From positions 1 to 53,095 of the IMG/VR virus record IMGVR_UViG_3300027608_000043: a stretch of 53,095 nucleotides of DNA; one strand, 5' to 3'. The DNA comes from a virus (taxonomy: Duplodnaviria > Caudoviricetes). The translations under genes were made by a program, and so were the position numbers. Positions 26,849-42,391 of this stretch are shown here, piece after piece. Positions within the stretch are counted from its first letter, which is position 1; every line of letters starts with the position of its first letter. The notes under the pieces are model-generated. The model had not been told where the DNA came from and did not search any database. It worked only from the letters and a program-made list of their open reading frames with translations.

Positions 26849-26852
26849 CTAA

Positions 26853-26888: not shown

Positions 26889-26919
26889 ATCCAACCAACC
26901 TTACTTTATTTTCAACATC

Positions 26920-27300: not shown

Positions 27301-27311
27301 ATTTAACCATC

Positions 27312-27470
27312 ATGACTTATCTAACTCATCAAAGCTACACTATTGATCAACTAGATGTATTAACAGATATTGCAGATGTACAAGAAGAAGCAATGCGTAA
27401 TTTCAGATGGTGTGATAGTCCAGAACTATTACCTGATGAAGTAACTTTTGTTTCAACAATTACTGAATAA
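27312..27470 (+). CDS. Small acidic protein (52 aa, MTYLTHQSY...)
   Basis: Translated by hand; fills the gap between two elements. Confidence 0.45.
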   Translation: MTYLTHQSYTIDQLDVLTDIADVQEEAMRNFRWCDSPELLPDEVTFVSTITE

Positions 27471-27480
27471 CAACTTAACA

Positions 27481-27516
27481 ACCTGGGCACCCATCACCAT
27501 GGGGTAAGCCCCAGTT
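27481..27516 (+). ncRNA. Internal-loop hairpin leader, copy 2
   Basis: Near-identical to 26853-26888; 29 nt before ATG. Confidence 0.65.
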
Positions 27517-27545
27517 ATTTAATCAAACCTTAACCTCCACCTAAC

Positions 27546-27845
27546 ATGACTACCACTGCGCCACGCATCAATGAATACACTGCTCTCGCGGGTATTCTCA
27601 AAGACCTCAAGGCTATCGTAGCCAGGGAAAGCAAGCGTCCACAAGGGTGTGAAGACCTCACACTCTCAATGCTTGCCCTTTTAGAAGAGGAGATCATTCC
27701 TCAACTAGAGAATGAGATCGAACATGATCTTAACTACGATCCAACACCTCAGCATTTATGGGATGCCACAGGGGGTGAAGCCCCAGTGACCATGGCAGAA
27801 ATGCATGCCTCTGCTTGGCAACAACACCAAGAAATGCATAGCTGA
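27546..27845 (+). CDS. Hypothetical phage protein
   Basis: 99-aa ORF, 'YDPTP...GGEAPVTMAEMH...AWQQH'. Confidence 0.65.
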   Translation: MTTTAPRINEYTALAGILKDLKAIVARESKRPQGCEDLTLSMLALLEEEIIPQLENEIEHDLNYDPTPQHLWDATGGEAPVTMAEMHASAWQQHQEMHS

Positions 27846-27850
27846 ATCAC

Positions 27851-27879
27851 ACGTCCTGAGTATGACGTTAAACTGCTCA
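27851..27879 (+). ncRNA. PK-family pseudoknot leader
   Basis: ACGUC-C-UGAGUA-U-GACG-UUAAAC-UGCUCA. Confidence 0.8.
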
Positions 27880-27900
27880 CACTCCATTGCAATTTAAGAC

Positions 27901-28311
27901 ATGTTCTTTTCCAATCCTTCCAAGTCTCATTGCTTTAACGGTCCGTTAGAGGTTACAGCAACAACAAGTCTCAAGAAGATTACTAAGACAATAGAAGATC
28001 GTATCGACGGTCTTATCTCCAAGCTAATCCGTAGCTTTGAGAAACAATATCCTGGTCGCTACGGCGACATGACCTTTGAGATTAACAAAGGTAACAAGTA
28101 TTACAAGATCATGGAAGTAACAAGTTCCATGGGTTGTATTACTAGTAGATCAGTCCATGCTTTTATTAGTAGACAGACAGGTGCTGTATACAAACCAGCA
28201 GGCTGGAAGTCTCCGGCTAAACATGTAAGATACAATCTACTAGACGATGCATCCTATGCAAAATGTCTAGAGCGAGCTGACTGGGCAGGCGGCTACCTAT
28301 ACATAAGGTAA
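27901..28311 (+). CDS. Conserved phage protein (KYYKI...SVHAF...TG.VYKPA.WK.PAKHVRYNL family)
   Basis: Motif recognised from cyanophage/T4-like hypothetical proteins. Confidence 0.7.
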   Translation: MFFSNPSKSHCFNGPLEVTATTSLKKITKTIEDRIDGLISKLIRSFEKQYPGRYGDMTFEINKGNKYYKIMEVTSSMGCITSRSVHAFISRQTGAVYKPAGWKSPAKHVRYNLLDDASYAKCLERADWAGGYLYIR

Positions 28312-28376
28312 TCCGTCATTTCCTGCATAGATCACTCGCCATCCACTACATTACTACTATCCCCTCCCTTCCCACC

Positions 28377-28688
28377 ATGACTACTACAGACGTAGGCGGT
28401 ACCCTCTTCGGTGCCGTCATCGAGTACAGGATCAAGGTCAATGACATCTGGCAAGATCGATCAGTCTTTCTGATCAACAAACAACACGCACTCACGTGGT
28501 TGTCAGAAGACTGGGTCAAGATGACTAAGAAGCATGATGCCATGCTTATGGATATTCGTATCGATTATCCTGTCTACTATCCAGACATCGATCCAATAGA
28601 TGTTTCTGGCTATGAAGATCCAACGAATGCAGACATGATCTACAGTGTAGATTTCAAGTCTGAAAAGATAAGCTACTCAGAAGTATAG
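28377..28688 (+). CDS. Hypothetical protein
   Basis: 103-aa ORF. Confidence 0.55.
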   Translation: MTTTDVGGTLFGAVIEYRIKVNDIWQDRSVFLINKQHALTWLSEDWVKMTKKHDAMLMDIRIDYPVYYPDIDPIDVSGYEDPTNADMIYSVDFKSEKISYSEV

Positions 28689-28694
28689 ATGTAA

Positions 28695-28723
28695 GTGTCC
28701 TGGGCACGACATTAAACTGCCCT
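28695..28723 (+). ncRNA. PK-family pseudoknot leader
   Basis: GUGUC/GACAU and GGGCA/UGCCC: compensatory changes in both helices. Confidence 0.8.
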
Positions 28724-28755
28724 ATACACTTAATCAATTCTTAACCTCCTCATCC

Positions 28756-28965
28756 ATGACTGACTCCAACATTCAAGTGCCTGATGCTTTAAGCATTCAA
28801 CGATTACAAGCTATGGAATTTGTTGCCAAGATGAGAGCAGCAGCTGACCGTGTCGGAGCTGGTTTCATTGGTGGCTTCATTGATCCAAACACTGGTGAAC
28901 AATTCACCATGACTAATATGAATCCTTCTATTACTCCTGACATTACCAAATTATTAGAAGACTAA
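28756..28965 (+). CDS. Hypothetical protein
   Basis: 69-aa ORF. Confidence 0.6.
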   Translation: MTDSNIQVPDALSIQRLQAMEFVAKMRAAADRVGAGFIGGFIDPNTGEQFTMTNMNPSITPDITKLLED

Positions 28966-29213
28966 TTAACAAGGGGCTGGATCGCATTAGATCCTAAGTC
29001 TGGTGCGGCCAGCTACCCCTCATTAACTGGGTCAGTCCCAGTGATGGCCTTCAACATCACAAGGTCCCATTCTGATTAAGCAGATGTTAATCAGAGGAAT
29101 ATACCAGATCAAACTCTGGATTTTAAATCACCGGCCAGTGAGGTCTCGAGAACCACACCAATTGTACACAACAATTGTCCAGGCCGTGTCTATTATCTCT
29201 ATCCCTAATTCAA

Positions 29214-29414
29214 ATGACTAAACCTAAGTCTGCTTTCAATTTTGACAAGACTATTGCTGGATTCAATATCACGGAGAATGGCATCAAGTCATTCACCAAA
29301 ACAATCCAGCTTGGCCCACTGCAACTCACGCTTAATACCCGTGAGTCAGGCGTTCATGCATCCATTGCTTTACCAGGTACTGGCTTAAGCAAACGCAACA
29401 TAAAGATATTGTAA
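29214..29414 (+). CDS. DUF4236-like small basic protein
   Basis: 'FNITENGIKS...SIALPGTGLS' pattern; likely start ATG 29214. Confidence 0.55.
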   Translation: MTKPKSAFNFDKTIAGFNITENGIKSFTKTIQLGPLQLTLNTRESGVHASIALPGTGLSKRNIKIL

Positions 29415-29425
29415 TTAACTAGCTC

Positions 29426-29453
29426 CGTCCTGGACATGACGTTAAACTGTCTA
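29426..29453 (+). ncRNA. PK-family pseudoknot leader
   Basis: CGUC/GACG and UGGACA/UGUCUA. Confidence 0.8.
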
Positions 29454-29474
29454 CGTCCCATTGCAACTCAGCCC

Positions 29475-29678
29475 ATGACTCCTTCTGAAACCTATCAATT
29501 GACTGTCCGTATGGAAACCTACGGCGGTAAGTTCATCTCATCGCTTGCCGTAGCAATTCGCTACGCTGACCCCGTCAGTAAACACAAACTACTAGCTGCA
29601 TTCCCTGAAGTTGTAGCTAAGTACGGACCTAAGTCTGTATTCGATCCAGCTGATCGTCAACCTATGGAGGTACTTTAA
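29475..29678 (+). CDS. Hypothetical phage protein
   Basis: 'METYGGKFISSLA...ADP...KLLAAFPE' motif; likely start ATG 29475. Confidence 0.65.
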   Translation: MTPSETYQLTVRMETYGGKFISSLAVAIRYADPVSKHKLLAAFPEVVAKYGPKSVFDPADRQPMEVL

Positions 29679-29950
29679 TGCCATCTATCTGGGCCATAAG
29701 GCATATTGATGTCTATCCCACAGGCGTCAACGAATACCAAGTCTATGCGGAAGCATGGATAGAAGATCGTATTCAGGTTAGTCCTGCCACATGGGAAGAA
29801 CCAGCAGAGCATAGGCCTGGCTTATGTTCTGCCTCCACCTATGTAGAAGACAAACCACCTAGTGATCCATCAGATCTAGATGAATATATCCACGAATTAA
29901 ATCGTGGCAATTCTCTTGATTGGATCGACGTTGATTCCACTGACATCTAA
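29678..29950 (+). CDS. Hypothetical protein
   Basis: 90 aa, TAATG coupled. Confidence 0.6.
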   Translation: MPSIWAIRHIDVYPTGVNEYQVYAEAWIEDRIQVSPATWEEPAEHRPGLCSASTYVEDKPPSDPSDLDEYIHELNRGNSLDWIDVDSTDI

Positions 29951-30021
29951 CTATCTATCTCCCTGGTACAATCAAACACCAAAGGAAAATCTACTAACCT
30001 CTTTTCTTATCTTTTTTAATC

Positions 30022-30360
30022 ATGACTAACCAACAAGACTACACGCAGCACCCAATCACCCCACCGCCTGAGCTGGTGCGCGAGTGGATGCACAAGGCAA
30101 ATAACAATGAGGCAATACTCCCTCAAGTTGCCAAATTTGCCTCTCAATGGGGCAGTGACCAGGAGCTGGAGGCGTGTTGCAGTTACTTTGAGGACCATCT
30201 TCGTGAAGGTCTTTCGATAGAACTTCGCATCGCTCGCCGCCCCAAACCACCGAGCTTAAAAGAGCAAGCACTGGCGGTACTTGACGACTGCTCTGACCGT
30301 CTCGACGATGCCCACAAAAACATCGTCCGCTCTGCTCTTGAGGAACTACCCAATGATTAA
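30022..30360 (+). CDS. Hypothetical protein of a cyanophage-type family
   Basis: 'HPITPPPELV..W...DQELEACC...RRPKPPSLKEQAL' pattern. Confidence 0.65.
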   Translation: MTNQQDYTQHPITPPPELVREWMHKANNNEAILPQVAKFASQWGSDQELEACCSYFEDHLREGLSIELRIARRPKPPSLKEQALAVLDDCSDRLDDAHKNIVRSALEELPND

Positions 30361-30580
30361 AGGTTTTAGTATCGAATTCAAACCTTGGTATATCACAATA
30401 CGTGGCCTTAGGGGTAGAGTCTATCTAGCTACAGGCTTTAGTAAACATGTACCAGTCTTTACACCAAGGCATACGTACTTGGATTCCGAGTATTCTACGT
30501 TTATCGAGAATACAACTAACTATATGTCAGAGCACTACGATGAGCTAGAGGAAGAGAGACAATACGGTATCTACAATTAA
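30353..30580 (+). CDS. Hypothetical protein
   Basis: Likely start ATG 30353 (MIKGFSIEF). Confidence 0.5.
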   Translation: MIKGFSIEFKPWYITIRGLRGRVYLATGFSKHVPVFTPRHTYLDSEYSTFIENTTNYMSEHYDELEEERQYGIYN

Positions 30581-30586
30581 ACTTAT

Positions 30587-30614
30587 CGTCCTGAGTATGA
30601 CGTTAAACTGCTCA
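30587..30614 (+). ncRNA. PK-family pseudoknot leader
   Basis: CGUCCUGAGUAUGACGUUAAACUGCUCA. Confidence 0.8.
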
Positions 30615-30636
30615 CATCCCAACTGCAACTCAACTC

Positions 30637-32280
30637 ATGGAATTCCAACTCCCATCAAACCTTCAGCAACACCTCGTCAAGTACGACCCGCAACTCAAGA
30701 AGCTTATCCCACCTAGTAAACCCAAGGTATCACGAAACACACTTGGGTTGCCTGATGATATCATCCCTGCTCACATCATCAAGAAAGAAGTTCTATCAAA
30801 GGTAGTTACTCACATCAACGCTGAACCAGTAGAAGAAAGATACCATATATTCAAGAAGGATAATACTGAGACCAGGGCTTTGATCTACCACGTAGAGAAC
30901 CTATGGGTAGCTGCCTGGTTGCCTAACCCTGGAGAAGATTACGTTTACGGAATATCGTTTGCTTGTAAAGCTAGTGCTTTTAACAAGATCAATATACCAT
31001 TCGGATATAAAGGTGAACGTCTATTCAATATAGACAATGTAATACCTAAGAAGTATGGACGTACTGACTTCTATACCTGGACGGACTACATAACAATAGA
31101 TCACATTAAGAACGGGTTAACTAATCCGTACTGGCTACATAATACAACTGCATACAAACAGAAGTTACAAGAGATTAAACGACACTTAGCTTCGTTTACT
31201 GCGCAGATCAAACAGTCTATCCCTCACTGGAAAGAAGATGGTACACATAACATATTCAAGAGACTTCATCCAGTGACTAATACTTATACTCATATCTTGC
31301 GTATACCAGAAGAGTATCCCTCAGTACCAGGGGTAGACCTATACAAGATGTATCTAGATGAAAATAATAGACATGTACTTGATACACCATGGTTCAAACG
31401 TTACATCAATACAGAAGCACAGAAGATAATCACTGCGTTCCATGATCCAACTACTATATCTCCTGAAGTACTAGCAAATATACATGATGAAGTAAAGCAT
31501 ACGCTTGCATGGATCAACAAGATACTTAAGATATGGCCTGACTGTCCTATCGATTACTTGCAAACTGCTATCAGCAATAATACATTTGCATTACTTACTA
31601 ACCATAGTCTTTACTGGTCCCTTAGCTCATCTGATGGTGCAGTACATACTTGGCTTAATACTTATTTACCTGTAGATTCATTCTTTAAAATCCTTACTAA
31701 ATATACAGATGAAGTAAAGACTAGATTTAATCCATCAAACAATTTACCAAGTAGAAATAGATCTACATTCCAATTATTATTTGACACAATATCTATGCTT
31801 GATCAGATACTTACAGCAGGTGAGACTATCGATCCACCTAAGCGTTGGCGCATAGAAGAATTCCATGATCACATCCAAGTGAAAGCTTGGACAATAAAGA
31901 ATCCTAATCAATGTCTGCCACAGGATTTATTTCCTGCTCCTGTCAAGGTGTTGGATGATAACGAATTAACGTGGACCTTTATACAACCAATAGATACACA
32001 CCAACTATCCAAATGGGGACAAGCAGTACGTAACTGTGTTGGTGCAGCAGCATCATATGCTAATGCCGTTAAGGCTAAGAAGGCATTCATTGTCCTGTGT
32101 CTGTGTAATAACAGACCGCAGTTCACTGTCATGCTTAAGGTATCCAACGGTGTCATGCACGTAGACCAGATCGTTGGTCTATCCAATGCCAGGCTCAACG
32201 ACATTGAAAGAAACATCTATGAAAATATGTTTAGCAAGGCGTTGCAATTACGAGAAGAAGAACTAAGATTAGCCAACTGA
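30637..32280 (+). CDS. PcfJ-like domain protein
   Basis: C-terminal 'EFHD...L..WGQAVRNCVG...Y...Q..G..N' pattern. Confidence 0.7.
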   Translation: MEFQLPSNLQQHLVKYDPQLKKLIPPSKPKVSRNTLGLPDDIIPAHIIKKEVLSKVVTHINAEPVEERYHIFKKDNTETRALIYHVENLWVAAWLPNPGEDYVYGISFACKASAFNKINIPFGYKGERLFNIDNVIPKKYGRTDFYTWTDYITIDHIKNGLTNPYWLHNTTAYKQKLQEIKRHLASFTAQIKQSIPHWKEDGTHNIFKRLHPVTNTYTHILRIPEEYPSVPGVDLYKMYLDENNRHVLDTPWFKRYINTEAQKIITAFHDPTTISPEVLANIHDEVKHTLAWINKILKIWPDCPIDYLQTAISNNTFALLTNHSLYWSLSSSDGAVHTWLNTYLPVDSFFKILTKYTDEVKTRFNPSNNLPSRNRSTFQLLFDTISMLDQILTAGETIDPPKRWRIEEFHDHIQVKAWTIKNPNQCLPQDLFPAPVKVLDDNELTWTFIQPIDTHQLSKWGQAVRNCVGAAASYANAVKAKKAFIVLCLCNNRPQFTVMLKVSNGVMHVDQIVGLSNARLNDIERNIYENMFSKALQLREEELRLAN

Positions 32281-32286
32281 TATAAC

Positions 32287-32323
32287 CCTGGGCAGTCAGC
32301 GCCAACCTGACGTAAGCCCCAGG
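32287..32323 (+). ncRNA. Internal-loop hairpin leader, copy 3
   Basis: CCUGGG-CA-GUCAG...CUGAC-GUAAGC-CCCAGG; apical stem fully replaced but still paired. Confidence 0.7.
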
Positions 32324-32354
32324 CTTTAACCTACTACACCACTGCACTTAACTC

Positions 32355-32720
32355 ATGTCTATCCTTGCTTGCTTTAGTCAACTGCTTCCACAATTCCATG
32401 CTTACATGGATCAAGATCAACGTTACAACCTAGGTGCTACCTGGAAAGATAGTGAGGGTCTTACTGATTGTCACAATCTTGAGCTAAGGTATGTACGTAA
32501 CTCAGAGCGGCTTGCGCTCCAGGGTAAACCCCAGCCTGATGGTAGCTGGGCCTATGTCGAAGCTAATGGTACGGTCCACACCATAACTGCGGATCGTGCA
32601 CAAGCTTTTATGGAGAAGACCCATGAACATGCCACCATTATGTGTGGAATGATCGACCGCCTCAAAGAGGCTGGCCTAATGGGTGAGACTCATGAGACTA
32701 GTGCTCAACCTGCTGCCTAA
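32355..32720 (+). CDS. Hypothetical protein
   Basis: 121-aa ORF with the CCACTGCACT motif 6 nt upstream. Confidence 0.6.
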   Translation: MSILACFSQLLPQFHAYMDQDQRYNLGATWKDSEGLTDCHNLELRYVRNSERLALQGKPQPDGSWAYVEANGTVHTITADRAQAFMEKTHEHATIMCGMIDRLKEAGLMGETHETSAQPAA

Positions 32721-32733
32721 AGATTAAATAAAT

Positions 32734-32767
32734 GGGGGCTAGCTTTACGTTGGTCCCCTTTACCTTT
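32734..32767 (+). terminator. Possible intrinsic terminator
   Basis: GGGGGCUAGC/GUUGGUCCCC stem with G-U pairs favouring the + strand, followed by UUUACCUUU. Confidence 0.55.
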
Positions 32768-32793
32768 ACAATAACAATGTCTTAATTATTACC

Positions 32794-33123
32794 ATGACTA
32801 ACGCCGCTGATCGCATTAATGCAATTGACCCTGGTCTAATTGAAAAGATTGAAGATGGTATCCCTGATCACACTTGGGATTATGTTATCAACTCTCTATC
32901 GCATAGAATGTTAGATTGCTTGCCTATGCAAACGATCATATCAATAGCATCCTTATATCTATCTGAGTATTACACTGAAAATACAGATGAGCTTATCCCT
33001 GATGCTCTTGAGATTATTGGAATTCAAGACACTGTTAATCTATTAGAAACATTAGAGCTAAAGATTATTCCTACTACGGATGAACTAACAATAGATAAGA
33101 ATACAACTAACGATATCTATTAG
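32794..33123 (+). CDS. Hypothetical acidic protein
   Basis: 109-aa ORF. Confidence 0.6.
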   Translation: MTNAADRINAIDPGLIEKIEDGIPDHTWDYVINSLSHRMLDCLPMQTIISIASLYLSEYYTENTDELIPDALEIIGIQDTVNLLETLELKIIPTTDELTIDKNTTNDIY

Positions 33124-33128
33124 GTATC

Positions 33129-33157
33129 ACGTCCTGAGTATGACGTTAAACTGCTTG
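33129..33157 (+). ncRNA. PK-family pseudoknot leader
   Basis: ACGUC/GACGU and UGAGUA/UGCUUG (G-U pairs). Confidence 0.78.
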
Positions 33158-33179
33158 TCTGTTCCATTGCTTTATTCTT

Positions 33180-33524
33180 ATGGCTTCTATGATTGCTTTT
33201 GATGTTACTGAAGATGATTGGATTGCGTTCCAGCAATTCACAGATACCGGTGGTATATCTGTTGCTACAACAGATGTAACTATTACTGCTATTACAGAAC
33301 AGTACGTTTCTTTTTTGCGAGCTCTAAGCTTTATGGATTGCCAAATAGAAGATGCATTCAATGATGCAATAGAAGAGATACGCAAACGTCGCAAAGTAGA
33401 TTCTAATGATTATCTCATGACATCCACATCCAATGAAGCCTCTCTATCAAACATTGACAACAGCACAGAAGACCAAACTAAAGAAACGACTGGAACAAAT
33501 CCAGTTAATGACTGGCTTGAATGA
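33180..33524 (+). CDS. Hypothetical acidic protein
   Basis: 114-aa ORF. Confidence 0.55.
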   Translation: MASMIAFDVTEDDWIAFQQFTDTGGISVATTDVTITAITEQYVSFLRALSFMDCQIEDAFNDAIEEIRKRRKVDSNDYLMTSTSNEASLSNIDNSTEDQTKETTGTNPVNDWLE

Positions 33525-33624
33525 ACGTATCTATGAACAAGATCATCGTTTAACACCAAAGCAAGAACAGTTATCTGCTCTATGTACTGATCGTATGAAG
33601 TTCTTAATGGGACTTCTATCTTAG
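33433..33624 (+). CDS. Hypothetical small protein
   Basis: 63-aa ORF ending just before a PK element. Confidence 0.5.
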   Translation: MKPLYQTLTTAQKTKLKKRLEQIQLMTGLNERIYEQDHRLTPKQEQLSALCTDRMKFLMGLLS

Positions 33625-33631
33625 CTTAGAT

Positions 33632-33659
33632 CGTCCTGAGTATGACGTTAAACTACTCA
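33632..33659 (+). ncRNA. PK-family pseudoknot leader
   Basis: UGAGUA/UACUCA fully Watson-Crick. Confidence 0.8.
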
Positions 33660-33681
33660 CTAAACCCACTGCAATCACACC

Positions 33682-34461
33682 ATGTCACTGCTTAAGTTTT
33701 CCCACGGTAATGCTAAACTTGCTAACCGTTTGATCTTTAATCTACCAGCGGGTTATGCTTGTCCTTCCGCTGGTGTATGTAGAACATTTGCTGATCGCCA
33801 CACAGGTAAGATCAATGACAGTCTTGCAATACCTAATGCAGGAGTAGCTGACTATCGCTGCTTTGCTTCTATGGCAGAGACACGTCCTAATGTTAGAGAT
33901 GCTAGATGGTATAACTGGGATCTACTAAAGGATGCCATGTATACAGATGATGAAGGTGCAGAAGGAATGGCTGATCTAATCATCAGTTCCTTAGCACCAC
34001 ATGAAGAAGATCTTGTAAGGATCCATGAGTCAGGTGACTTCTGGACAGAGCTATACCTAATGGCCTGGATTACGGTAGCTAGAAAGGAACCTAACCGTAC
34101 CTTCTATGCTTTTACTAAGTCACTTAATATGTGGCTTAACCTAGCCAGTGAGATACCTAACAATCTATTCTTGACTGCTTCCATAGGAGGCCAGTTAGAT
34201 TCATTGATACCAGGTAGAGAATCTACTTTCATCCGCCGTGCATACGTTGTATATACAGAGGAGGAAGCGTCTACACGTGGCCTAGAGATAGACCATGATG
34301 ATAGTCATTGCTTTGGCGATAAACCATTCGCATTATTAGTACATGGTTCCCAAAGGGCAGGGTCAGCTGCCAGTAAAGCAATCAGCCTACGTAAGAAAAC
34401 TGGAGGCTTCACTGGGTATAACATAAACAGACGCAAAGCTAAAGAGATTGTTAAGGTATAG
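33682..34461 (+). CDS. Gene-product-88-like (radical-SAM-related) protein
   Basis: GNAKL...FNLPAG..CP...C...C.A and RIHESGDF, FYAFTKS motifs. Confidence 0.7.
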   Translation: MSLLKFSHGNAKLANRLIFNLPAGYACPSAGVCRTFADRHTGKINDSLAIPNAGVADYRCFASMAETRPNVRDARWYNWDLLKDAMYTDDEGAEGMADLIISSLAPHEEDLVRIHESGDFWTELYLMAWITVARKEPNRTFYAFTKSLNMWLNLASEIPNNLFLTASIGGQLDSLIPGRESTFIRRAYVVYTEEEASTRGLEIDHDDSHCFGDKPFALLVHGSQRAGSAASKAISLRKKTGGFTGYNINRRKAKEIVKV

Positions 34462-34639
34462 TTACCAAGGATAGTAGATCTATTGGTATCACTAGCTGTT
34501 ATCCTTAACTTAATAAAAATTAAGTTAGGTCTTACGTTGCAATTATAGATAAGGCCGATAACATCTGATTGTTTACTTCCTGTATATCTCCCCTCACCCC
34601 GAGGGGAGTACCAGGATAATCCTCTATTAGTCTTAGACC

Positions 34640-34873
34640 ATGGCCTATGTAATCAGTTGTTATCTCAAGGGTATTCCCCATGCTATCCAGGCTAATGAAA
34701 AAGAACATAAGTTCTATCTCATCCCTCTTACCAGTGAGTCACACCTTGGTAAAGTATTGTCTCACCCTCATAAGACAGGGATCATCACCATATTAAATTG
34801 GATAAAAGCAAATGACCCAGCCTTATCAAAGCACGACTTACTTATCGAAGACGAACAACTGTTTAGGAAATAA
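34640..34873 (+). CDS. Hypothetical protein
   Basis: 77-aa ORF upstream of the polymerase. Confidence 0.55.
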   Translation: MAYVISCYLKGIPHAIQANEKEHKFYLIPLTSESHLGKVLSHPHKTGIITILNWIKANDPALSKHDLLIEDEQLFRK

Positions 34874-37460
34874 GAAAGCTTATGTATTTGATTTAGAAAC
34901 CAACGGGCTTTACAATGATGTCAATGAGATCTACTGTCTTGTCATCCATGATATCAAGGGAGAACTTACTACTACTTATGGGCCTGATTCTATTGCTGCT
35001 GGTCTTGAGCATCTGGCTAAAGCTGACATTCTCATAGGGCATAACATCATCTTCTATGACATCCCAGTCATAAGAAAACTTTATCCTTTCTATACCTTTA
35101 GAGCAGCTCAGCTTATCGACACGCTCGTTTGTACCAGGCTTATATGGCCCAAGGAATTATTACTTGATGAAGACAATGAAGCTGACTATGATATACCTCC
35201 TAGGCTACGGGGCTCTGCCTCACTTAAAGCCTGGGGGTATCGTCTATTAGATAACAAAATTGAGTTCAAAGATTTCTCTGCTTACTCAGAAGAGATGGCG
35301 GCATACTGTAGACAAGACGTACAAGTAACTCACAAGCTATTCAATCATGTACAAAAACAGAACTACTCTCAGACAGCGCTTGATCTCGAGCATGCATTTG
35401 CTAGGGCAATTAACGATCAGATTATTGTGGGCTTTCCGTTTGATGTGGATAGGTCTCTTGATCTGGTTGATAACCTTAGACAAAAGAAAGAAGAGTTGGA
35501 CCAGATACTGCAACAAATGTTCCCACCCATACCAGTGGAATCCACCTTCATCCCCAAAATAAACAATGAGAAACGAGGCTTTGTTAAAGGCGTCCCCTTT
35601 ATTAGACGAACAGAACAGAAGTTTAACCCAGGATCTCGTCAGCAAATTGTGGAGCGCTTACATAATAAGTACGCTTGGGTTCCAGAGAAAACAACAGCAA
35701 AAGGAAATCCAATCGTTAATGATGATGTGCTGGAAAGCTTATCTTTTCCTGAAGCCAAAACCTTAGTTGAATACCAGCTCATTAAGAAAAGATTAGGACA
35801 GATTGCAGATGGACAGAATGCTTGGCTGAAGTTATTCAATCACGAAGACGGCAAGATGCACGGTGATGTTGTCACGAATGGTTGCATCACTGGTCGATGT
35901 GCACACAAGAATCCAAACATGGCTCAGGTCCCAGGGGTCTATAGCCCTTATGGTAAGGAATGCCGTGCTTTGTTCTATGCACCTAAAGATTATTTACTTA
36001 TGGGTGTAGATGCAAAAGCATTAGAGCTTAGATGTTTAGCAGGGTACTTAGCTCGTTGGGATAAAGGAGAATACGCTGCTCTAGTAGTAGATCCTGAGGT
36101 TGATATTCATACATACAATCAGGAAAGATTTGGTGTGAGTACCAGGGATATAAGCAAGCGTCTTCTCTATGCTTGTGTTCCTACTGATATAACAACAGTG
36201 CTTACAAAAGAAGGATGGAAAACATATGATGAATTAAAGGTTGGTCAATTAGTTTTAACTTACAACGAAGAAAAAGAAATAAAAGAATGGAAGCCTATTT
36301 TTGAAATCATACCTGAACATGAAGATGATGTTTGGCAAATGCAACATAATCATTCATTCAAAGTACAAGCTACCGCTGACCATCGGTGGTATGTAAAGAA
36401 ACGTAAACGTAATGGAAATGTATCTTGCGGTTGGAGAACAGGTAAAAATTATATGGTGTCTAAAGTTGAAACAACAACAGAAATAAATACTGAATCTAAT
36501 ATTATTGTTAATGCCCTATTAGTTGAACCTGAGTCTTTGCCAATTGACATTGATTGGAAGTGGCGAAAATATGGTACAGATTGGACTAAAGTTATTTTAC
36601 AAATGAACCAAGCCCAACGTAAAGCTTGGCTATCTGGATTCATGATTGCTGATGGATTTCAATCATGTAAACCAAATCAAAAAGAGAAATGGCATTGGAC
36701 ACAAATACGTAATGAACATTATGAAGCAGCTTTAGTTGCTTCTTATCTAGAATTTCCAGGAGTAATCCATGTTGCTAAGCCATCACTCAATGCTAGTGGT
36801 ACTACACAAATGCATGTGAGCATTGCAAATAAAGGTCATGTTACTGGACAAAAATTACAAAAGACTTATATAGGAAAGAAGAATGTATTTTGTATACGTA
36901 CAGAAAATAAATCTTTTGTTATGCGCCAAGGGGATTGTATTACCATTACAGGAAATTGTTTGTATGGTGCAGGCTCTTTAAAGATGGGAGGGATTATTGA
37001 TCCGAATGAAAAAGATGAAGCAGTTCTACGTAAACTAGGAAGTACTGCAATTAATTTATTCCTTGAAGGTGTGCCTGCACTTAAATCATTAAAGGAAGAA
37101 ATCAATTGTTACTTATCAGAACGTGATTATCTTATTGGTTTAGATCGCAGACAATTATATTGTCGTTCAGCATTCAAAGGATTGAATGTATTGTTGCAAT
37201 CTGCTGGTGCCATCCTTATGAAACAAGTTGTTATTAATCTGAATACTGCATTAGATAAACTTGGTTTGGTATATGGAGAGGACTGGATGCAGCTCGCTAT
37301 GATCCATGATGAAATCCAACTAGCTTGCTTACCAGAACATAAAGATCTGGTTATGACGCAAGCACTAGATGCTTTCCCTGCTGCTCAAAAGTTCTTTAAG
37401 TTTGCTTGCAAGATTGAAGGCGACGCTAAGATCGGTTATACTTGGGCCGACACCCACTAG
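34812..37460 (+). CDS. polA: Family A DNA polymerase (3'-5' exo + pol), intein-containing
   Basis: Exo I FDLETNG, GHNI..YD, YC.QDV; motif A DAKALELR, motif B R..SKRLLYA|CLYGAG, motif C IHDEIQ; T7-like. Confidence 0.95.
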   Translation: MTQPYQSTTYLSKTNNCLGNKKAYVFDLETNGLYNDVNEIYCLVIHDIKGELTTTYGPDSIAAGLEHLAKADILIGHNIIFYDIPVIRKLYPFYTFRAAQLIDTLVCTRLIWPKELLLDEDNEADYDIPPRLRGSASLKAWGYRLLDNKIEFKDFSAYSEEMAAYCRQDVQVTHKLFNHVQKQNYSQTALDLEHAFARAINDQIIVGFPFDVDRSLDLVDNLRQKKEELDQILQQMFPPIPVESTFIPKINNEKRGFVKGVPFIRRTEQKFNPGSRQQIVERLHNKYAWVPEKTTAKGNPIVNDDVLESLSFPEAKTLVEYQLIKKRLGQIADGQNAWLKLFNHEDGKMHGDVVTNGCITGRCAHKNPNMAQVPGVYSPYGKECRALFYAPKDYLLMGVDAKALELRCLAGYLARWDKGEYAALVVDPEVDIHTYNQERFGVSTRDISKRLLYACVPTDITTVLTKEGWKTYDELKVGQLVLTYNEEKEIKEWKPIFEIIPEHEDDVWQMQHNHSFKVQATADHRWYVKKRKRNGNVSCGWRTGKNYMVSKVETTTEINTESNIIVNALLVEPESLPIDIDWKWRKYGTDWTKVILQMNQAQRKAWLSGFMIADGFQSCKPNQKEKWHWTQIRNEHYEAALVASYLEFPGVIHVAKPSLNASGTTQMHVSIANKGHVTGQKLQKTYIGKKNVFCIRTENKSFVMRQGDCITITGNCLYGAGSLKMGGIIDPNEKDEAVLRKLGSTAINLFLEGVPALKSLKEEINCYLSERDYLIGLDRRQLYCRSAFKGLNVLLQSAGAILMKQVVINLNTALDKLGLVYGEDWMQLAMIHDEIQLACLPEHKDLVMTQALDAFPAAQKFFKFACKIEGDAKIGYTWADTH
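36174..36956 (+). mobile_element. Intein (261 aa; C1 ... GN / C+1) with a degenerate LAGLIDADG region
   Basis: CVPTDITTVLTKEGW block A, ATADHRW block B, VFCI block F, ITGN end; single WLSGFMIADG motif. Confidence 0.88.
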
Positions 37461-37465
37461 ACTTC

Positions 37466-37493
37466 CGTCCTAGGCATGACGTTAAACTGTCTT
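37466..37493 (+). ncRNA. PK-family pseudoknot leader
   Basis: CGUC/GACG and AGGCA/UGUCU. Confidence 0.78.
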
Positions 37494-37512
37494 TCACTTC
37501 ACTTCTGATCCA

Positions 37513-38301
37513 ATGAACTTCACTAGCCTTTGCGCCCAAACAACTCAAGAACCTACTGAGGTGTATACATCGGCCACTAGTACTGCTGTACGGTGTCCAT
37601 TGCTCTTGCCTCCAGTGGGTAATAAAGCTCCTACTGCAATCGAACTTACTCTCTATGGTAAGAATTCTGAACGCTTTCTTAAGACTCCTAAGAATTCACA
37701 ACTCTATGTACATGGAGCCAAGCTTAAGTACGATACAACGACACGTACTTTTTCTTTACAGGGAGGAAACATTGCTATAGTCAATACTTCTTTCCCTATC
37801 TTTAATACAGTAATCCTTAGTGGACGCTGCATCAAAGATATTGATAAAGAAGATGAGCGTAGCTTTAAAACAACTGCTGATGGTTTAATGATTGCTAATC
37901 AAACATTATTAGTTAGCTCTGGTAGAAACCAAGCAGACTTATTTAACTTTTATGCAATCAACTCAGCTGATGATAAGTTTAATCAAGCTGAACTCATGGT
38001 CAACTTTACCAGGAAAGGAACAGGTCTTACCATACAAGGTCGACTTGTTACTGATACCTGGTCAGATAAAGAAACTAAAGAACGCAAATCAAATACTAAG
38101 ATTCAACTAATCTCAATGACCTTAGGTCCTAAGCCCCAGGCTTCTGATACTCCTAGAGAATCAACAGGTACTAAAGCGCCAAGCTTATGGGGTGGTGCCA
38201 CAGTAGAAGAGATTGCTGAACCATGGGGACAGAACGTAGGTGACAATCTACCTACTCTGCCTGCTCCCTTTAGTAAGACTGAAGAGTTCCCTCCTTTTTA
38301 A
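37513..38301 (+). CDS. ssb: Single-stranded DNA-binding protein with two OB-like repeats
   Basis: NTVILSGR...KGTGLTIQGRLVTDTW.DKET.E..S and an acidic C-terminal tail ending EEFPPF. Confidence 0.8.
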   Translation: MNFTSLCAQTTQEPTEVYTSATSTAVRCPLLLPPVGNKAPTAIELTLYGKNSERFLKTPKNSQLYVHGAKLKYDTTTRTFSLQGGNIAIVNTSFPIFNTVILSGRCIKDIDKEDERSFKTTADGLMIANQTLLVSSGRNQADLFNFYAINSADDKFNQAELMVNFTRKGTGLTIQGRLVTDTWSDKETKERKSNTKIQLISMTLGPKPQASDTPRESTGTKAPSLWGGATVEEIAEPWGQNVGDNLPTLPAPFSKTEEFPPF

Positions 38302-38317
38302 TCTTCTATTAAACCTA

Positions 38318-38345
38318 CGTCCTAAGCATGACGCTAAACTGCTTA
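38318..38345 (+). ncRNA. PK-family pseudoknot leader
   Basis: CGUC/GACG and UAAGCA/UGCUUA. Confidence 0.8.
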
Positions 38346-38366
38346 CGTCCAACCTCAGCACATCTC

Positions 38367-39434
38367 ATGTCTGAAACTTTGTTCGACATCCCAACCCAAG
38401 CACCTCCTACGAAATCACTTCCGATCATGACTATGAAGAAAACTTCTGGCTCCGCTCTGGCAACACGTGGCCTTGACTCATTTAAAATATTCCAATCCAA
38501 GGAATATATTACTGGGTACCAAAACTTTGTTACTATTCAACCCTTAAACAAATCTAAAACAAGAGGTTGGTTTATACGTAACACAGACCTTGATACATGT
38601 AAATGGCATGCTACAGAAGATCAGTTTGCTAAAGGATCAGTCATCTGGAACTACAAGCAAACATTCGGAATGGCACCTAACACTTCTGTAGAGGAAGGTC
38701 TTAATTTTACTGAACCACGTATTCAGATTTTATTACGTTCACCTCTTATGGTTGAGGAAACCACAGGGATGAAACAAACGATTGGCACATTCGATAACCC
38801 TGAGGTTAAAACCAAGTGGGATAACGATAAGCTAGCTGCTGATCTAGCTAATAGTAAAGGTGAGATGTACAAACGTAAGTACAGTGTACGTACAAAGTAT
38901 CTTGTTTTTATTCTTAAAGAAGATAACCGTCGTGCCCATGATTTACCAATGGTCCTTACTCTGAAAGGATTGAACGGTACTGATGCAGCAGAGAAGATCA
39001 AGATGTATGAGAAAGAAATGTCCAAGTGTTTAAGTAAGGCACTTGATACTGAAGTACCACTAGTATTTAACGAGAAGTTTTATGCTACTACTGTATTCAC
39101 ACCTAGCTTGGTTAATGATATGCGTGGTGCTAATAACGTTGAGATATGTGCTATTGAAGGGTTTAATATCCCTGACTATGCCACACAAGAAGCAGCAGTT
39201 GAATCACTGAGTGACATGAGTATTCCTGATGAAGATCGAGAATCAACTTGGAAGTATCAAGAACTATTCCAAGATTATATTATGCAACACTCAAAACAAG
39301 ACGCAGCTAAATTAGGTGGTGCCTATGGTATCAAAGATGGTATTGAGATACTACCTGAATGTCGTATAACAGATGTAGCTGCACTACCCAGTGCAAAAGA
39401 CCCTGTTACAGGTGAGGATGATTCTCTGCTTTAA
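38367..39434 (+). CDS. Hypothetical replication/recombination-region protein
   Basis: Likely start ATG 38367 (MSETLF); follows SSB. Confidence 0.6.
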   Translation: MSETLFDIPTQAPPTKSLPIMTMKKTSGSALATRGLDSFKIFQSKEYITGYQNFVTIQPLNKSKTRGWFIRNTDLDTCKWHATEDQFAKGSVIWNYKQTFGMAPNTSVEEGLNFTEPRIQILLRSPLMVEETTGMKQTIGTFDNPEVKTKWDNDKLAADLANSKGEMYKRKYSVRTKYLVFILKEDNRRAHDLPMVLTLKGLNGTDAAEKIKMYEKEMSKCLSKALDTEVPLVFNEKFYATTVFTPSLVNDMRGANNVEICAIEGFNIPDYATQEAAVESLSDMSIPDEDRESTWKYQELFQDYIMQHSKQDAAKLGGAYGIKDGIEILPECRITDVAALPSAKDPVTGEDDSLL

Positions 39435-39691
39435 CCTTCTAGGTTAACCTCAGGATTAGCAAGCTCACTATCATCAATCTTTAAATTCTTGATAGTGAGC
39501 AATTCTTTTGCTAGTCCCTTGATAACACCTTGTCTTTGTGTACACAATCCCAACAGTAATGTTGAGTATTGTTTAAGGGTATCAACAGAAGTTGTTTCAT
39601 TTATTGCACGTTGGATTCTTTCTTTCCAAAACAGATCATCTAACCCTGGATCTAATTCTAATTTACCCAAGGGAATCAATTTGTATTCCAT
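39431..39691 (-). CDS. Hypothetical protein
   Basis: 86-aa ORF convergent with the preceding gene. Confidence 0.5.
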   Translation of the reverse strand: MEYKLIPLGKLELDPGLDDLFWKERIQRAINETTSVDTLKQYSTLLLGLCTQRQGVIKGLAKELLTIKNLKIDDSELANPEVNLEG

Positions 39692-39722
39692 AGTTTAAAC
39701 TATTTTAATTAATGTTACTACC

Positions 39723-39920
39723 ATGAATTCCAGATTGAAAGCAGCTACTAAACATGTAGCACCCTATGCAGCTATCGGTACCTTAGCTGCTCTTGCCCTA
39801 GCTAACCCTATTAGCTGGGGCATGCTTGCCTATGGTTTGTTACGTATTGGTAAGACTGCTTACGATACTGCTCCAAGGAATGCTATTATTCCTAACGAAC
39901 AGGATGACCTGTTCATCTAA
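39723..39920 (+). CDS. Small membrane protein
   Basis: 65 aa, hydrophobic. Confidence 0.55.
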   Translation: MNSRLKAATKHVAPYAAIGTLAALALANPISWGMLAYGLLRIGKTAYDTAPRNAIIPNEQDDLFI

Positions 39921-39939
39921 TCCCATCTCAACTCACCCA

Positions 39940-40908
39940 ATGAAAACTCTTATTCAAGATCAACTTAATTCCGCTCAAAAACAAATCTATTCTATTAGTA
40001 ATCTAGGAAGAGCATTCCCTGATTTCAAGGACACTGCTATTGCTGGCATCTACTTACGTGATGATTCCGTTGTTGTTGTATACCAAGATGGAGCAGAGCA
40101 GCTCTATCCTAAACAGAATGTTATTGCTGCGTACCAAGAGTTTACCTTTCGTTTAAAAGACTTCTTCTCTTACCTTGGCCCTAACTATAGGGGTCCAAGT
40201 ATGTGGCATAACAACTCTTATATTATGTTTAAGGGTTGGCATTACCATCATCAGCTAGGAGCTAAGAGTGATCAGGCTTTATTTCAAAGGGAATGGATAG
40301 ATAAATTTATTTATCTCAAAGATAAAGAAAAATTAAAAGCTTTATTGCAAGGTGAGCATACAGATCTGGGTCATCTAGTAGCACCTGATGGTTTCTTTGA
40401 ACCTGATGAAGAAGTTAACTTAAACTCTTCCTTAGAAGATACTGTTGCTAAACAAGAACAAAAGATTAAGGAACCTTATTGTTCATGTGGTTCATTCCAG
40501 CGGCAGCTACTAAACCTATCTGATTTCCAGCAGGAGATTGAAGGGTACAAGCCTCAGTGTATACATCTAACTTGGTTCAAGAAGTATCGTGATCTATTGG
40601 TAAAGCGGACTATAGTGCGTGATCAGTACAGAGGTTCTTCCCCTGATAACGCTTGTGCCTGGTGGTATGCCCCACCAGCAGACCACACATCGAAAGGTCG
40701 ATTCCTTGTGTTGTATACCAAATCTGGTTCAATGGCTCCTTTGTCCCACTGGAGGACCTATAAACCTGATGAACATTACACAGCAGATGATGTCTGGACT
40801 CTATTTGACGCTATGCTAGACGCAAGCTTTGTGCCATTCCCTGGTACAAGCCTATCCCAACTCTCTCGTAGAACCAATGGAAACACAAACGGTTGTCCAA
40901 TTGCATGA
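39940..40908 (+). CDS. SWIM zinc-finger protein
   Basis: YCSCGSF...QCIH (CxC...CxH); likely start ATG 39940. Confidence 0.65.
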   Translation: MKTLIQDQLNSAQKQIYSISNLGRAFPDFKDTAIAGIYLRDDSVVVVYQDGAEQLYPKQNVIAAYQEFTFRLKDFFSYLGPNYRGPSMWHNNSYIMFKGWHYHHQLGAKSDQALFQREWIDKFIYLKDKEKLKALLQGEHTDLGHLVAPDGFFEPDEEVNLNSSLEDTVAKQEQKIKEPYCSCGSFQRQLLNLSDFQQEIEGYKPQCIHLTWFKKYRDLLVKRTIVRDQYRGSSPDNACAWWYAPPADHTSKGRFLVLYTKSGSMAPLSHWRTYKPDEHYTADDVWTLFDAMLDASFVPFPGTSLSQLSRRTNGNTNGCPIA

Positions 40909-41143
40909 CCTTGTTGAGCAAGGTAAATTCAAAATTGAATGTTTAAATTTTAAAGAAGAAGATACAGGAACACCATCTATAAGAGTTAGCTGGGATGAAA
41001 CAGAACCAGCTCTTGATTGGTGGACAAGTAAAACAAAAGAAGAACAAGAAGCTTTTATATATAAAGTAGTAGCACACACTGCATACTCATTAGATCCAGA
41101 TAAAGATGATGAAGAAGATAGAGTGTTTGAAAGTAATCTTTAA
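40877..41143 (+). CDS. Hypothetical protein
   Basis: Likely start ATG 40877; 'I.VSWDETEP...W' motif. Confidence 0.55.
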   Translation: METQTVVQLHDLVEQGKFKIECLNFKEEDTGTPSIRVSWDETEPALDWWTSKTKEEQEAFIYKVVAHTAYSLDPDKDDEEDRVFESNL

Positions 41144-41148
41144 TTTAC

Positions 41149-41176
41149 CGTCCTGAGTATGACGTAAAACTACTCA
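41149..41176 (+). ncRNA. PK-family pseudoknot leader
   Basis: CGUCCUGAGUAUGACGUAAAACUACUCA. Confidence 0.8.
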
Positions 41177-41198
41177 TCAATTCCATCTCTTTATTATC

Positions 41199-41327
41199 AT
41201 GTTTGAATTCTTTTCTTCTGTTGTTTTGCCTTGCGTTTCTAGTATTGCAAAAGATTTGTTGTTTGCACTTAGTGCAATAGCAATCACTTGGATATTGAAT
41301 AAGATCAAGATGCAATTTGCATCATGA
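41199..41327 (+). CDS. Small membrane protein (42 aa, MFEFFSSVVLP...)
   Basis: Translated by hand; ATG lies 22 nt after a PK element, the family spacing. Confidence 0.55.
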   Translation: MFEFFSSVVLPCVSSIAKDLLFALSAIAITWILNKIKMQFAS

Positions 41328-41400
41328 ATTACATAGTTGCTTTCTGTTTAATCCTTATTGTTTGTTTTACTATTGATCACTTTATTACCAAACTATTCAA

Positions 41401-42361: not shown

Positions 42362-42391
42362 TGCTACAGTGAAGATAACGGCTAAGATATT

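Follow-up and report, generated by a model that had tools for sequence, protein, structure and literature searches.

The window analysed in the present study is the whole of IMG/VR record IMGVR_UViG_3300027608_000043, a stretch of 53,095 bases of DNA from a lake cyanophage (Caudoviricetes) with an estimated completeness of 67%, in which a 28-nt element that folds as an H-type RNA pseudoknot occurs in nine copies. The late genes (large terminase, virion structural protein and major head protein) lie on the − strand at 128-23898, and a + strand block at 23989-47006 holds approximately 45 small early and replication genes; a search for tRNA genes in the window found none. The Synechococcus phage S-EIV1, from an arctic lake, was the sole named relative in the phage collection searched, matching with 75.8% identity over 7% of a 15-kb query, at the DNA polymerase and SSB genes. 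All nine copies of the element are on the + strand of the early/replication block, from 27852 to 41176, with none in the late block, and all are intergenic, lying 5, 5, 6, 6, 6, 7, 7, 11 or 16 nt from the preceding stop codon. They stand in front of genes for a DUF7717 protein, a PcfJ-like protein, a GP88-like protein, SSB and a DUF5895 protein (Pfam, with a phrog match for SSB), a 114-aa open reading frame (ORF) and three small ORFs. An earlier sequence-only reading of this DNA had named SSB, PcfJ-like and GP88-like genes as the key genes behind the element, and the Pfam identifications agree. The copies, with their covariance-model scores, and one degenerate look-alike are as follows.

27852-27879, + strand: copy 1, 47.5 bits; 6 nt past the stop of ORF 27546-27845; before the DUF7717 gene 27901-28311 (Pfam)
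28696-28723, + strand: copy 2, 40.2 bits; stem 1 UGUC/GACA, stem 2 GGGCA/UGCCC; before a 69-aa ORF, 28756-28965
29426-29453, + strand: copy 3, 42.4 bits; stem 2 UGGACA/UGUCUA; before a 67-aa ORF starting at 29475
30587-30614, + strand: copy 4, 47.5 bits; before the PcfJ-like gene 30637-32280 (Pfam PF14284)
33130-33157, + strand: copy 5, 42.6 bits; before the 114-aa ORF 33180-33524
33632-33659, + strand: copy 6, 46.8 bits; stem 2 UGAGUA/UACUCA; before the GP88-like gene 33682-34461 (Pfam PF17338)
37466-37493, + strand: copy 7, 40.8 bits; 5 nt past the DNA polymerase stop; before the SSB gene 37513-38301 (PF00436, phrog_44)
38318-38345, + strand: copy 8, 45.2 bits; linker CUAAAC; before the DUF5895 gene starting at 38367 (Pfam PF19247)
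41149-41176, + strand: copy 9, 44.2 bits; linker UAAAAC; before a 42-aa ORF, 41199-41327
24844-24871, + strand: degenerate look-alike, not counted as a member; CGUC/GACG, UUAAAC and a 4-bp GCUG/CAGC kept, C5 and U12 lacking; partial 9.7-bit match

The consensus of the copies is CGUCC-UGAGYA-U-GACG-UUAAAC-UGCUCA, and the 28-nt unit is numbered here as C1-G-U-C4 / C5 / U6-R-R-R-Y-A11 / U12 / G13-A-C-G16 / U17-U-A-A-A-C22 / U23-R-Y-Y-Y-A28. Scanning the window with the pattern CGTCCTNNNNATGACGTTAAAC, allowing up to three mismatches, gave nine forward matches, none in reverse and none in a control in which the sequence was read backwards. In addition, we built a covariance model from the nine window copies and six copies from S-EIV1 (15 copies) and ran it over the window with filters off; the nine copies scored 40-47.5 bits and the next best match in the 53 kb, both strands included, reached 9.7 bits. 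The nine repeats with a pseudoknot fold that had been claimed from the letters are thus all present by both methods, six of the start coordinates then given being exact and three lying 1 nt early (true starts 27852, 28696 and 33130). The two further variants proposed at that stage are not members, as that at 24844 is only the partial 9.7-bit match listed above and that at 24415 gives no model match at all.

These data, together with the comparisons that follow, clearly show that the element is a real, strongly covarying and widely spread H-type RNA pseudoknot of the gene strand. Stem 1 has 4 bp (CGUC/GACG) and stem 2 has 5-6 bp, formed by the hairpin loop with the bases past UUAAAC, giving approximately ten coaxial pairs. 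Pairing holds in 95% of cells across the 14 distinct copies of the window and S-EIV1, six of the ten pairs change on both sides and none of 500 shuffles reached the covariation score. S-EIV1 carries its six clear copies on the coding (−) strand, with CGUC/GACG, UGUC/GACA or AGUC/GACU as stem 1, and when the window, S-EIV1 and four relatives, which were obtained via their SSB protein without reference to the element, were taken together, all 39 model hits fell on the coding strand. A separate set of 99 distinct copies from other phages displayed 95.6% pairing, with all ten pairs changing on both sides and no shuffle among 500 reaching any measure, as compared with only 9-44% pairing for control structures slid along the same set; stem 2 alone has 94.6% of its cells paired, with two-sided changes at all six of its pairs. 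G-U pairs are frequent in this set (24 UG at pair 12-30 and 17 GU at pair 9-34) and, since such pairs become A-C mismatches on the opposite strand, the structure belongs to the gene-strand RNA. The earlier suggestions of a stem 2 that varies while its pairing is kept, of a compensatory UGUC/GACA stem 1 at 28696 and of G-U pairs pointing to + strand RNA are all borne out, both stems covarying in the 14-copy and 99-copy sets, the exchange at 28696 being real and the strand being confirmed by the frequent G-U pairs and the coding-strand orientation.

The distribution of the element was assessed with GTCCTNNNNNTGACNTTAAACT, a pattern which leaves base 1 and the 3′ arm of stem 2 free. It gave at least 115 stretches in IMG/VR and at least 120 stretches in a scan of one genome per prokaryotic species, and all frequencies derived from these two scans are those of samples. 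At least five of the six stem-2 pairs form in 118 of the 137 viral matches and in 87 of the 127 genome matches, as against 3 of 137 and 3 of 127 when the control arm was taken 10 nt further on, and 21 different stem-2 arm sequences occur in the 137 viral matches. The covariance model returned 145 and 22 hits in the scanned loci, and copies found by the model only, having been missed by the pattern, swap the inner pairs of stem 1 too (AGAC/GUCU, UGUG/CACA and CCUC/GAGG). With regard to individual bases, no change at G2, U3, C4, G13, A14 or C15 occurs among the 15 window and S-EIV1 copies; A11 and A19-A21 are likewise invariant in these 15 unbiased copies, with C22 kept in 14 of them and U17 and U18 varying (C, A). 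C5 is invariant both in the 15 copies and in all 145 of the wider set, for which the invariance of conserved single-stranded bases is partly built in, most loci having been picked by a pattern that fixes them.

Among cultured phages, 149 records match a 32-nt blastn query, of which 87 are Staphylococcus, 27 are near-identical Vibrio, nine are Lactobacillus and five are Synechococcus phages by organism name; Nostoc, Mycobacterium, Paracoccus and Moorella phages and the deep-sea thermophilic phage D6E are among the matches listed. The copy of Staphylococcus phage B166 (L250 1501-1528 in our numbering of loci; 21040-21067 of the record) has CGAC/GUCG as stem 1 and lies in the late region, between the head-morphogenesis gene and a hypothetical ORF preceding the major capsid gene. 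A copy in the T4-like cyanophage S-H35 has the linker AUAAAC, and folding copies with the linkers CAAAAC, AAAAAC and UUAAAC are found in Paracoccus phage ParMal1, Mycobacterium phage Labelle and a Vibrio phage respectively. Vibrio phage D456 g1 (L253 301-327), of the lineage with 27 near-identical records, has a folding copy with UCUC/GAGA as stem 1; this copy runs opposite to the annotated flanking genes, which means that the annotation is wrong there or that the rule of orientation does not hold. A contig of a giant-virus metagenome-assembled genome (GVMAG, IMG/VR) also carries one folding copy (L016 4424-4451, − strand).

Titles were listed for 80 of the 120 species-genome stretches, and by these titles the folding matches belong to Bacillota, Omnitrophota, ‘Planctomycetales’, Patescibacteria, Chloroflexota, Cyanobacteria, Thermodesulfobacteriota and others. 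The few matches among the same 80 rows titled as alpha- or gammaproteobacterial, Flavobacteriaceae, Chlamydiae or Wolinella include none that folds, and the depletion in Pseudomonadota rests on these titles, uncorrected for base composition or phylogeny. For E. coli, 12 of 5426 complete genomes match at E ∼6, all on plasmids of approximately 100 kb, and the candidate taken from these (L252), which lacks C5, has the linker UGCAAC and does not form stem 2, was rejected as a chance match; this search detects near-consensus copies only.

No Rfam 15 family matches the element, the preQ1, SAM-II/V, guanidine-III and fluoride pseudoknot riboswitches included, the window giving no match at the gathering score. 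At E ≤10, 12 weak matches occur in 24000-42000, 11 of them away from the copies and the twelfth being a plant small nucleolar RNA model at 41105-41187, on the opposite strand over a copy, with an E-value of 1.6. A literature search found no paper combining coremin, the eukaryotic viral RNA to which we compare the element below, with phages, and the main texts of two 2026 preprints on prokaryotic non-coding RNA mining and of a 2023 viral structured-RNA catalogue contain neither coremin nor a phage exoribonuclease-resistant RNA (xrRNA). According to passages of the catalogue, its supplements hold 12 candidates upstream of GP32/SSB genes (PMC10690425), which could include this element. What is likely to be new here, as judged from the sequences and their comparison, is a covarying coremin-like knot of phages and bacteria which matches no Rfam family, and its proposed role as a roadblock.

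Between the end of each copy and the ATG lie 21, 32, 21, 22, 22, 22, 19, 21 and 22 nt for copies 1-9, exactly as first reported for all nine. These leaders have no Shine-Dalgarno (SD) sequence and contain G at only 12 of 202 nt (6%), as against 20% G in the gene block; they are unstructured, and no conserved partner domain follows the knot.

27880-27900, + strand: leader of copy 1, 21 nt, G-poor, without an SD sequence
28724-28755, + strand: leader of copy 2, 32 nt, zero G
29454-29474, + strand: leader of copy 3, 21 nt, G-poor
30615-30636, + strand: leader of copy 4, 22 nt, G-poor
33158-33179, + strand: leader of copy 5, 22 nt
33660-33681, + strand: leader of copy 6, 22 nt, G-poor
37494-37512, + strand: leader of copy 7, 19 nt, the shortest
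38346-38366, + strand: leader of copy 8, 21 nt
41177-41198, + strand: leader of copy 9, 22 nt, zero G
27885-27895, 29458-29468, 30618-30628, 33164-33171 and 33665-33675, in the window: CCAYUGCAA-like words within five of the nine leaders
26855-26886, 27483-27514 and 32288-32322, + strand: second RNA module, found in none of 100 shuffles, with zero copies expected by chance

The CCAYUGCAA-like word lies approximately 5 nt past the knot and 8-12 nt before the ATG, and is present too in leaders of other phages (loci L021, L051, L066 and L106). The other intergenic gaps of the + block hold different stable structures, followed by a G-poor leader of similar kind, and such interchangeable structures fit a generic structural role. 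The second module listed above, CUGGGCA-[inner hairpin]-GUAAGYCCCAG, is likewise intergenic, and each of its three copies precedes a G-poor leader and an ATG; two copies have CCCAU/AUGGG as the inner hairpin, for which the third has GUCAG/CUGAC, a compensatory swap.

To describe the genomic setting more generally, 197 non-duplicate contexts were grouped by flank similarity into 103 clusters. A hard floor of 5 nt applies to the distance from the upstream stop codon (18 clusters at 5, ten at 6, seven at 7 and only five below), and one of approximately 19-20 nt to the distance to the ATG (29 clusters at 19-22 and six below). A stop and a start are both present in 27 clusters, a stop only in 27, a start only in 20 and neither in 29; there is no start codon at 17-35 nt in 56 of the 103 and no stop within 12 nt in 49. 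Approximately 5 nt of mRNA separate the A-site codon from the entrance of the ribosomal mRNA channel, and the 5′ edge of the initiation footprint is near −20. The two floors appear to match this geometry, and a knot clear of both ribosomes could stay folded while both neighbouring genes are translated.

Other settings are found elsewhere. In several uncultured phages tRNA genes (Asn, Arg, Ser and Lys) begin 1-4 nt past the knot, and in one of these three copies lie within a cluster of six tRNAs. The Firmicute copies often follow a terminator-like T-run and are themselves followed by an ordinary SD sequence at variable distance; at 15 Firmicute or phage loci with a T-run before the element, Rfam detected no riboswitch or leader RNA upstream, the only hit being a tmRNA gene (L173).

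L028 4882-4985: knot beside a tRNA gene
L036 7470-7573: knot beside a tRNA gene
L122 8642-8744: knot beside a tRNA gene
L086 5861-6676: three knots within the six-tRNA cluster

The element is entered by a tiny ORF (18-26 codons, with an SD sequence before it) at 28 of the 127 genome matches, and a translating ribosome must therefore meet the knot at those loci, which include L138, L140, L148, L155, L186, L241, L247 and 21 more from Omnitrophota/‘Planctomycetales’, Peptococcaceae and other metagenome-assembled genomes. The peptide has a conserved ..RP(V/I)AHC(K/G)(E/D)GC.. motif and belongs to no Pfam or NCBIfam family, and in 13 of the 16 loci read the ORF stops at a UGA formed by element bases 12-14, the peptide ending ..SWA. 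An operator-like palindrome lies upstream and genes for an Rrf2-type regulator or ferritin lie downstream, with NifS/NifU adjoining in L169, and from these sequences the tiny ORF and the knot may together serve in iron-sulfur or cysteine control by way of a leader peptide.

Having established the fold and its setting, we propose from the sequences and their comparison that the knot may be a protein-independent obstacle to enzymes which track along RNA in the 5′-to-3′ direction, namely scanning RNase E and RNase J, and so would protect each downstream cistron, a proposal to which we give an even chance of being right. Each copy would be transcribed within the + strand early/replication message and fold into a compact H-type pseudoknot, in which C5, U12 and the linker AAAC probably form groove triples as in luteovirus-type knots and as proposed for coremin. 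The folded knot would then, without any protein, mechanically obstruct enzymes arriving from the 5′ side, the enzymes stopped in a cyanobacterial host presumably being RNase E scanning from a 5′ monophosphate and the 5′-exonuclease RNase J. Decay initiated upstream would halt at the knot, the downstream cistron would keep a 5′ end capped by structure, and the unstructured G-poor leader of 19-32 nt would let ribosomes start without an SD sequence, the knot being placed as near as terminating (floor 5 nt) and initiating (floor ∼19 nt) ribosomes permit.

Several published observations are in keeping with such a role, as far as passages of the papers go. In vitro, bacterial RNase J1 comes to a halt at a flaviviral xrRNA, the block being mechanical and general (PMC5760640). 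RNase E, which scans from a 5′ monophosphate, steps over ordinary stem-loops, and H-type pseudoknots impede the scanning of E. coli RNase E in proportion to their coaxial pairs (8, 11 and 15; PMC9943677); that stem-loops are bypassed but pseudoknots impede the enzyme would explain the use of a knot rather than a hairpin. In addition, host RNase E is reported to rise when cyanophages infect, with antisense RNA shielding transcripts against this enzyme (PMC9692554, PMC3113571). Coremin itself, GUCCGAAGACGUUAAACUAC, consists of a 4-bp hairpin with a YGAD or YGNNAD loop, a conserved spacer and then a second hairpin, hp2 (PMC10520033); it causes Xrn1 to stall, keeps scanning ribosomes from passing and promotes −1 frameshifting (PMC10520033, PMC10321173), and hp2 is described as ‘strictly necessary’ for its Xrn1 resistance (PMC10321173).

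The partner enzyme was assessed by searching for RNase J (TIGR00649) in the first 50 of the 76 genomes with a folding match, and by examining a Synechococcus elongatus control genome, in which both the RNase J and the RNase E/G families were detected and from which both are expected in a Synechococcus host. Of the 19 bearers in which RNase J is missing, most are small metagenome-assembled genomes of Omnitrophota type; 16 of the 19 have RNase E/G and 17 have RNase Y, so that genome incompleteness does not explain the missing RNase J. RNase J as the universal partner was therefore rejected, with 19 of 50 bearers lacking it and no enrichment over the controls. It is plausible instead, from this comparison, that a knot of approximately ten coaxial pairs before each cistron acts as an obstacle to whichever 5′-tracking nuclease the host has. 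An exonuclease roadblock had been among the functions first suggested, and it survives in part: the coremin core is carried and H-type knots do obstruct RNase E, and only the universal role of RNase J falls.

A number of observations weigh against a roadblock. RNase J is not enriched in bearers, being present in 31 of 50 as against 18 of 31 genomes with only non-folding chance matches, and according to passages of the same RNase E study, pseudoknots with 8-11 coaxial pairs are only modest obstacles to that enzyme (PMC9943677). The hp2 which coremin requires lies behind none of the nine window copies and behind 15 of the 197 contexts, as against 13 in shuffles. A true copy is also present in a Vibrio phage, protection of the RNA downstream gives no obvious reason for copies that end 1-4 nt ahead of tRNA genes, and at the 28 bacterial loci with a tiny ORF it is a ribosome, and not a nuclease, that meets the element.

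The strongest of the rival explanations is that the ribosome is the target, with the knot insulating or tuning translation, either by stopping post-termination (scanning) ribosomes, which would leave the downstream gene to initiate independently, or as a standby or platform contact, at a set distance, that aids initiation without an SD sequence; we regard this as unlikely. The sharp, ribosome-sized floors, 5 nt past stops and 19-22 nt before ATGs, would be accounted for, as would the nine leaders with 6% G and no SD sequence, the blocking of scanning ribosomes and the frameshifting reported in passages on coremin, and the small ORF whose stop lies within the element or at its edge at 28 bacterial loci. 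However, a knot that needed only to remain folded in a compact genome would give the same floors, 56 clusters have no start at 17-35 nt and 49 have no stop within 12 nt, some copies adjoin tRNA genes, and the Firmicute copies have an ordinary SD sequence at variable distance. For the SD-independent translation enhancer that the sequence-only reading had put forward, the start-less contexts, the tRNA-adjacent copies and the Firmicute SD sequences mean that enhancement is not the general role; in this phage it is possible. We consider it quite doubtful that the element is a processing mark which splits the message into cistrons, whether as a minihelix resembling a tRNA acceptor, with RNase P or RNase Z cutting it, or as a minimal self-cleaving RNA. 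It does occupy the same intergenic slots as tRNAs, 1-4 nt from tRNA 5′ ends in several phages; its approximately ten coaxial pairs are near the 12 of the tRNA acceptor/T-arm stack, its strongly conserved unpaired bases resemble those of small ribozymes, and a P1-loop pseudoknot followed by UUAAA recalls pistol, a putative likeness pointed out in the earlier reading. Nevertheless, no Rfam ribozyme or tRNA-like family matches at E ≤10, the element has no CCA or T-loop, and the leaders behind it are unstructured with no conserved partner domain downstream. Contigs from RNA libraries span three copies (28696, 30587 and 38318), which speaks only weakly against a processing mark, as DNA is possibly present in these libraries. 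A further contig stops within copy 7, at 37466; as the three RNA runs, which hold 10-17% of sampled words, consist of contigs throughout, ends and strand are invisible.

An operator for an RNA-binding protein, either a phage translational repressor such as gene 32 protein or a host protein such as ribosomal protein S1, would fit the sequence-conserved loops and the regulon-like set of nine genes, SSB among them, that the element fronts. We nevertheless hold it to be improbable, as the same sequence occurs in unrelated phage families, bacterial chromosomes and a giant-virus contig without a common phage-encoded regulator, and a universal host protein as partner is possible but without support; for the same reason the suggestion of a binding site for a phage regulator does not stand up well, with the same element found in unrelated phages and bacterial chromosomes. 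Least probable of all, to the point of being hardly credible, is that the element acts as DNA, as a promoter with TAAACT as its −10 hexamer or as another protein-binding site. TAAACT does fit the TAnnnT form of a −10 hexamer, and the depositors of B166 annotated a BPROM-predicted promoter over its copy, but covariation of ten pairs with abundant G-U would be meaningless for duplex DNA, and a start approximately 7 nt past TAAACT would preclude the RNA from ever folding. Moreover, the −35 position is not conserved, and none of the nine copies is among the 38 sigma-70-like sites in 23800-43000 (−35/−10 hexamers with 16-18 nt spacing).

Three further features of the window were recorded. The divergent gap that heads the + block contains the region's best sigma-70-like site, and a terminator-like hairpin follows the first small gene of that block; from their sequences, the site may be the early promoter and the hairpin an attenuating terminator for it. 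The family A DNA polymerase gene gives split profile matches, at approximately residues 19-456 and 702-882; residues 459-533 match only a phage family of unknown function, and the stretch between the profile matches may be an insertion.

23942-23969, + strand: TTGATA-16-AATAAT, sigma-70-like site, 10/12
24238-24255, + strand: hairpin with T-run, terminator-like
34812-37460, + strand: family A DNA polymerase, 882 aa

To our knowledge, xrRNAs have been described only from eukaryotic viruses, and how phages set differing expression for genes within one long transcript is poorly understood. Taking the above together, the element could be the first natural prokaryotic xrRNA, one 28-nt protein-free knot present in phages, bacteria, a giant-virus contig and, by descent or convergence, eukaryotic RNA viruses, which would stop any enzyme that threads RNA from 5′ to 3′ (RNase J, scanning RNase E, Xrn1 and ribosomes) and with which phages would cut operon messages into segments of different lifetimes. 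We advance this wider claim tentatively, as somewhat more apt to fail than to hold. If it is true, a knot that blocks 5′-to-3′ decay would be a direct answer to the question of differential expression within one phage transcript, the biology of bacterial RNase E and RNase J would be linked to the xrRNA field, the strong conservation of the coremin core would have a reason, and a very small stabilizing part would be available for mRNA engineering in bacteria and cyanobacteria. Were the knot directed at ribosomes instead, it would be a new kind of intercistronic insulator.

Of the known systems, coremin is the one with which the element has most features to compare. The phage consensus and GUCCGAAGACGUUAAACUAC have GUCC and GACGUUAAACU in common, in the same order. 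Stem 1 is identical (CGUC/GACG, with the core GUC/GAC), the first loop base is a pyrimidine (C5), and a UUAAAC linker follows stem 1, corresponding to the coremin spacer GUUAAAC, although AUAAAC, CAAAAC and AAAAAC occur in cultured phages. Both RNAs are short, and the phage element is presumably, like coremin, independent of protein. According to passages of PMC10321173, base 5 of coremin is unchangeable save for C5U, which the original coremin tolerates, and a Watson-Crick coremin obtained from a screen, xrRNA-WCC, pairs loop bases 6-8 with spacer bases 18-20 and is Xrn1-resistant. The antiparallel Watson-Crick stem 2 between loop and spacer, with compensatory change and an H-type fold, is likewise found here, with 5-6 bp as against 3 bp or the non-canonical contacts of coremin. 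The phage loop differs, having 8 nt (C-U-R-R-R-Y-A-U) with U as its second base, and is neither YGAD nor YGNNAD; one coremin octaloop is reported as functional in passages of PMC10520033. The settings differ too, the element lying within polycistronic mRNAs of double-stranded DNA phages and bacteria and coremin in the 3′ untranslated regions of beny-, cucumo- and other eukaryotic RNA viruses, as described in parts of PMC10520033, PMC10321173 and PMC6546385. With the same plan but without hp2, a defining feature, the element is, by its sequence, coremin-like and not a coremin member.

The −1 frameshift knots of luteoviruses (beet western yellows virus, BWYV, and potato leafroll virus, PLRV), a comparison drawn also in passages by the coremin authors, are similarly compact H-type knots with a short stem 1, a loop 1 of one or two bases with a C and an A-rich loop crossing the stem-1 minor groove, as predicted for the phage element. 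The spacing is also that of a frameshift site, the element starting 5-7 nt past the last decoded codon. In contrast, the slot before the knot holds a stop codon rather than a slippery heptamer in an overlapping ORF, and in all nine window copies the stop of the upstream ORF ends 5-16 nt before the knot, no formal search for slippery heptamers having been made; furthermore, BWYV and other frameshift knots are reported not to have resisted Xrn1. The pistol ribozyme (RF02679), which occurs in phages according to passages of PMC4604425, resembles the element in that a hairpin loop forms a pseudoknot of approximately 6 bp. The earlier likening to the 5′ half of pistol does not make the element a pistol ribozyme, however, since no P2, P3 or cleavage-site junction follows the element and RF02679 gives no match in 24000-42000 at the gathering score or at E ≤10. 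The leader of T4 gene 32 likewise places a pseudoknot before a phage SSB gene, for SSB autoregulation, but here eight further genes have the element in front of them, as do many unrelated genes in other genomes, and it is therefore not an SSB-specific operator. Finally, the engineered RNase E obstacles of PMC9943677 shield downstream sites by coaxial pairing that the enzyme meets on its way from the 5′ end, which is the role proposed here for hosts with RNase E; they were pseudoknots of foreign origin inserted into reporters in E. coli, and the passages of that paper describe no natural, dedicated bacterial or phage obstacle of the kind that the present knot may represent.

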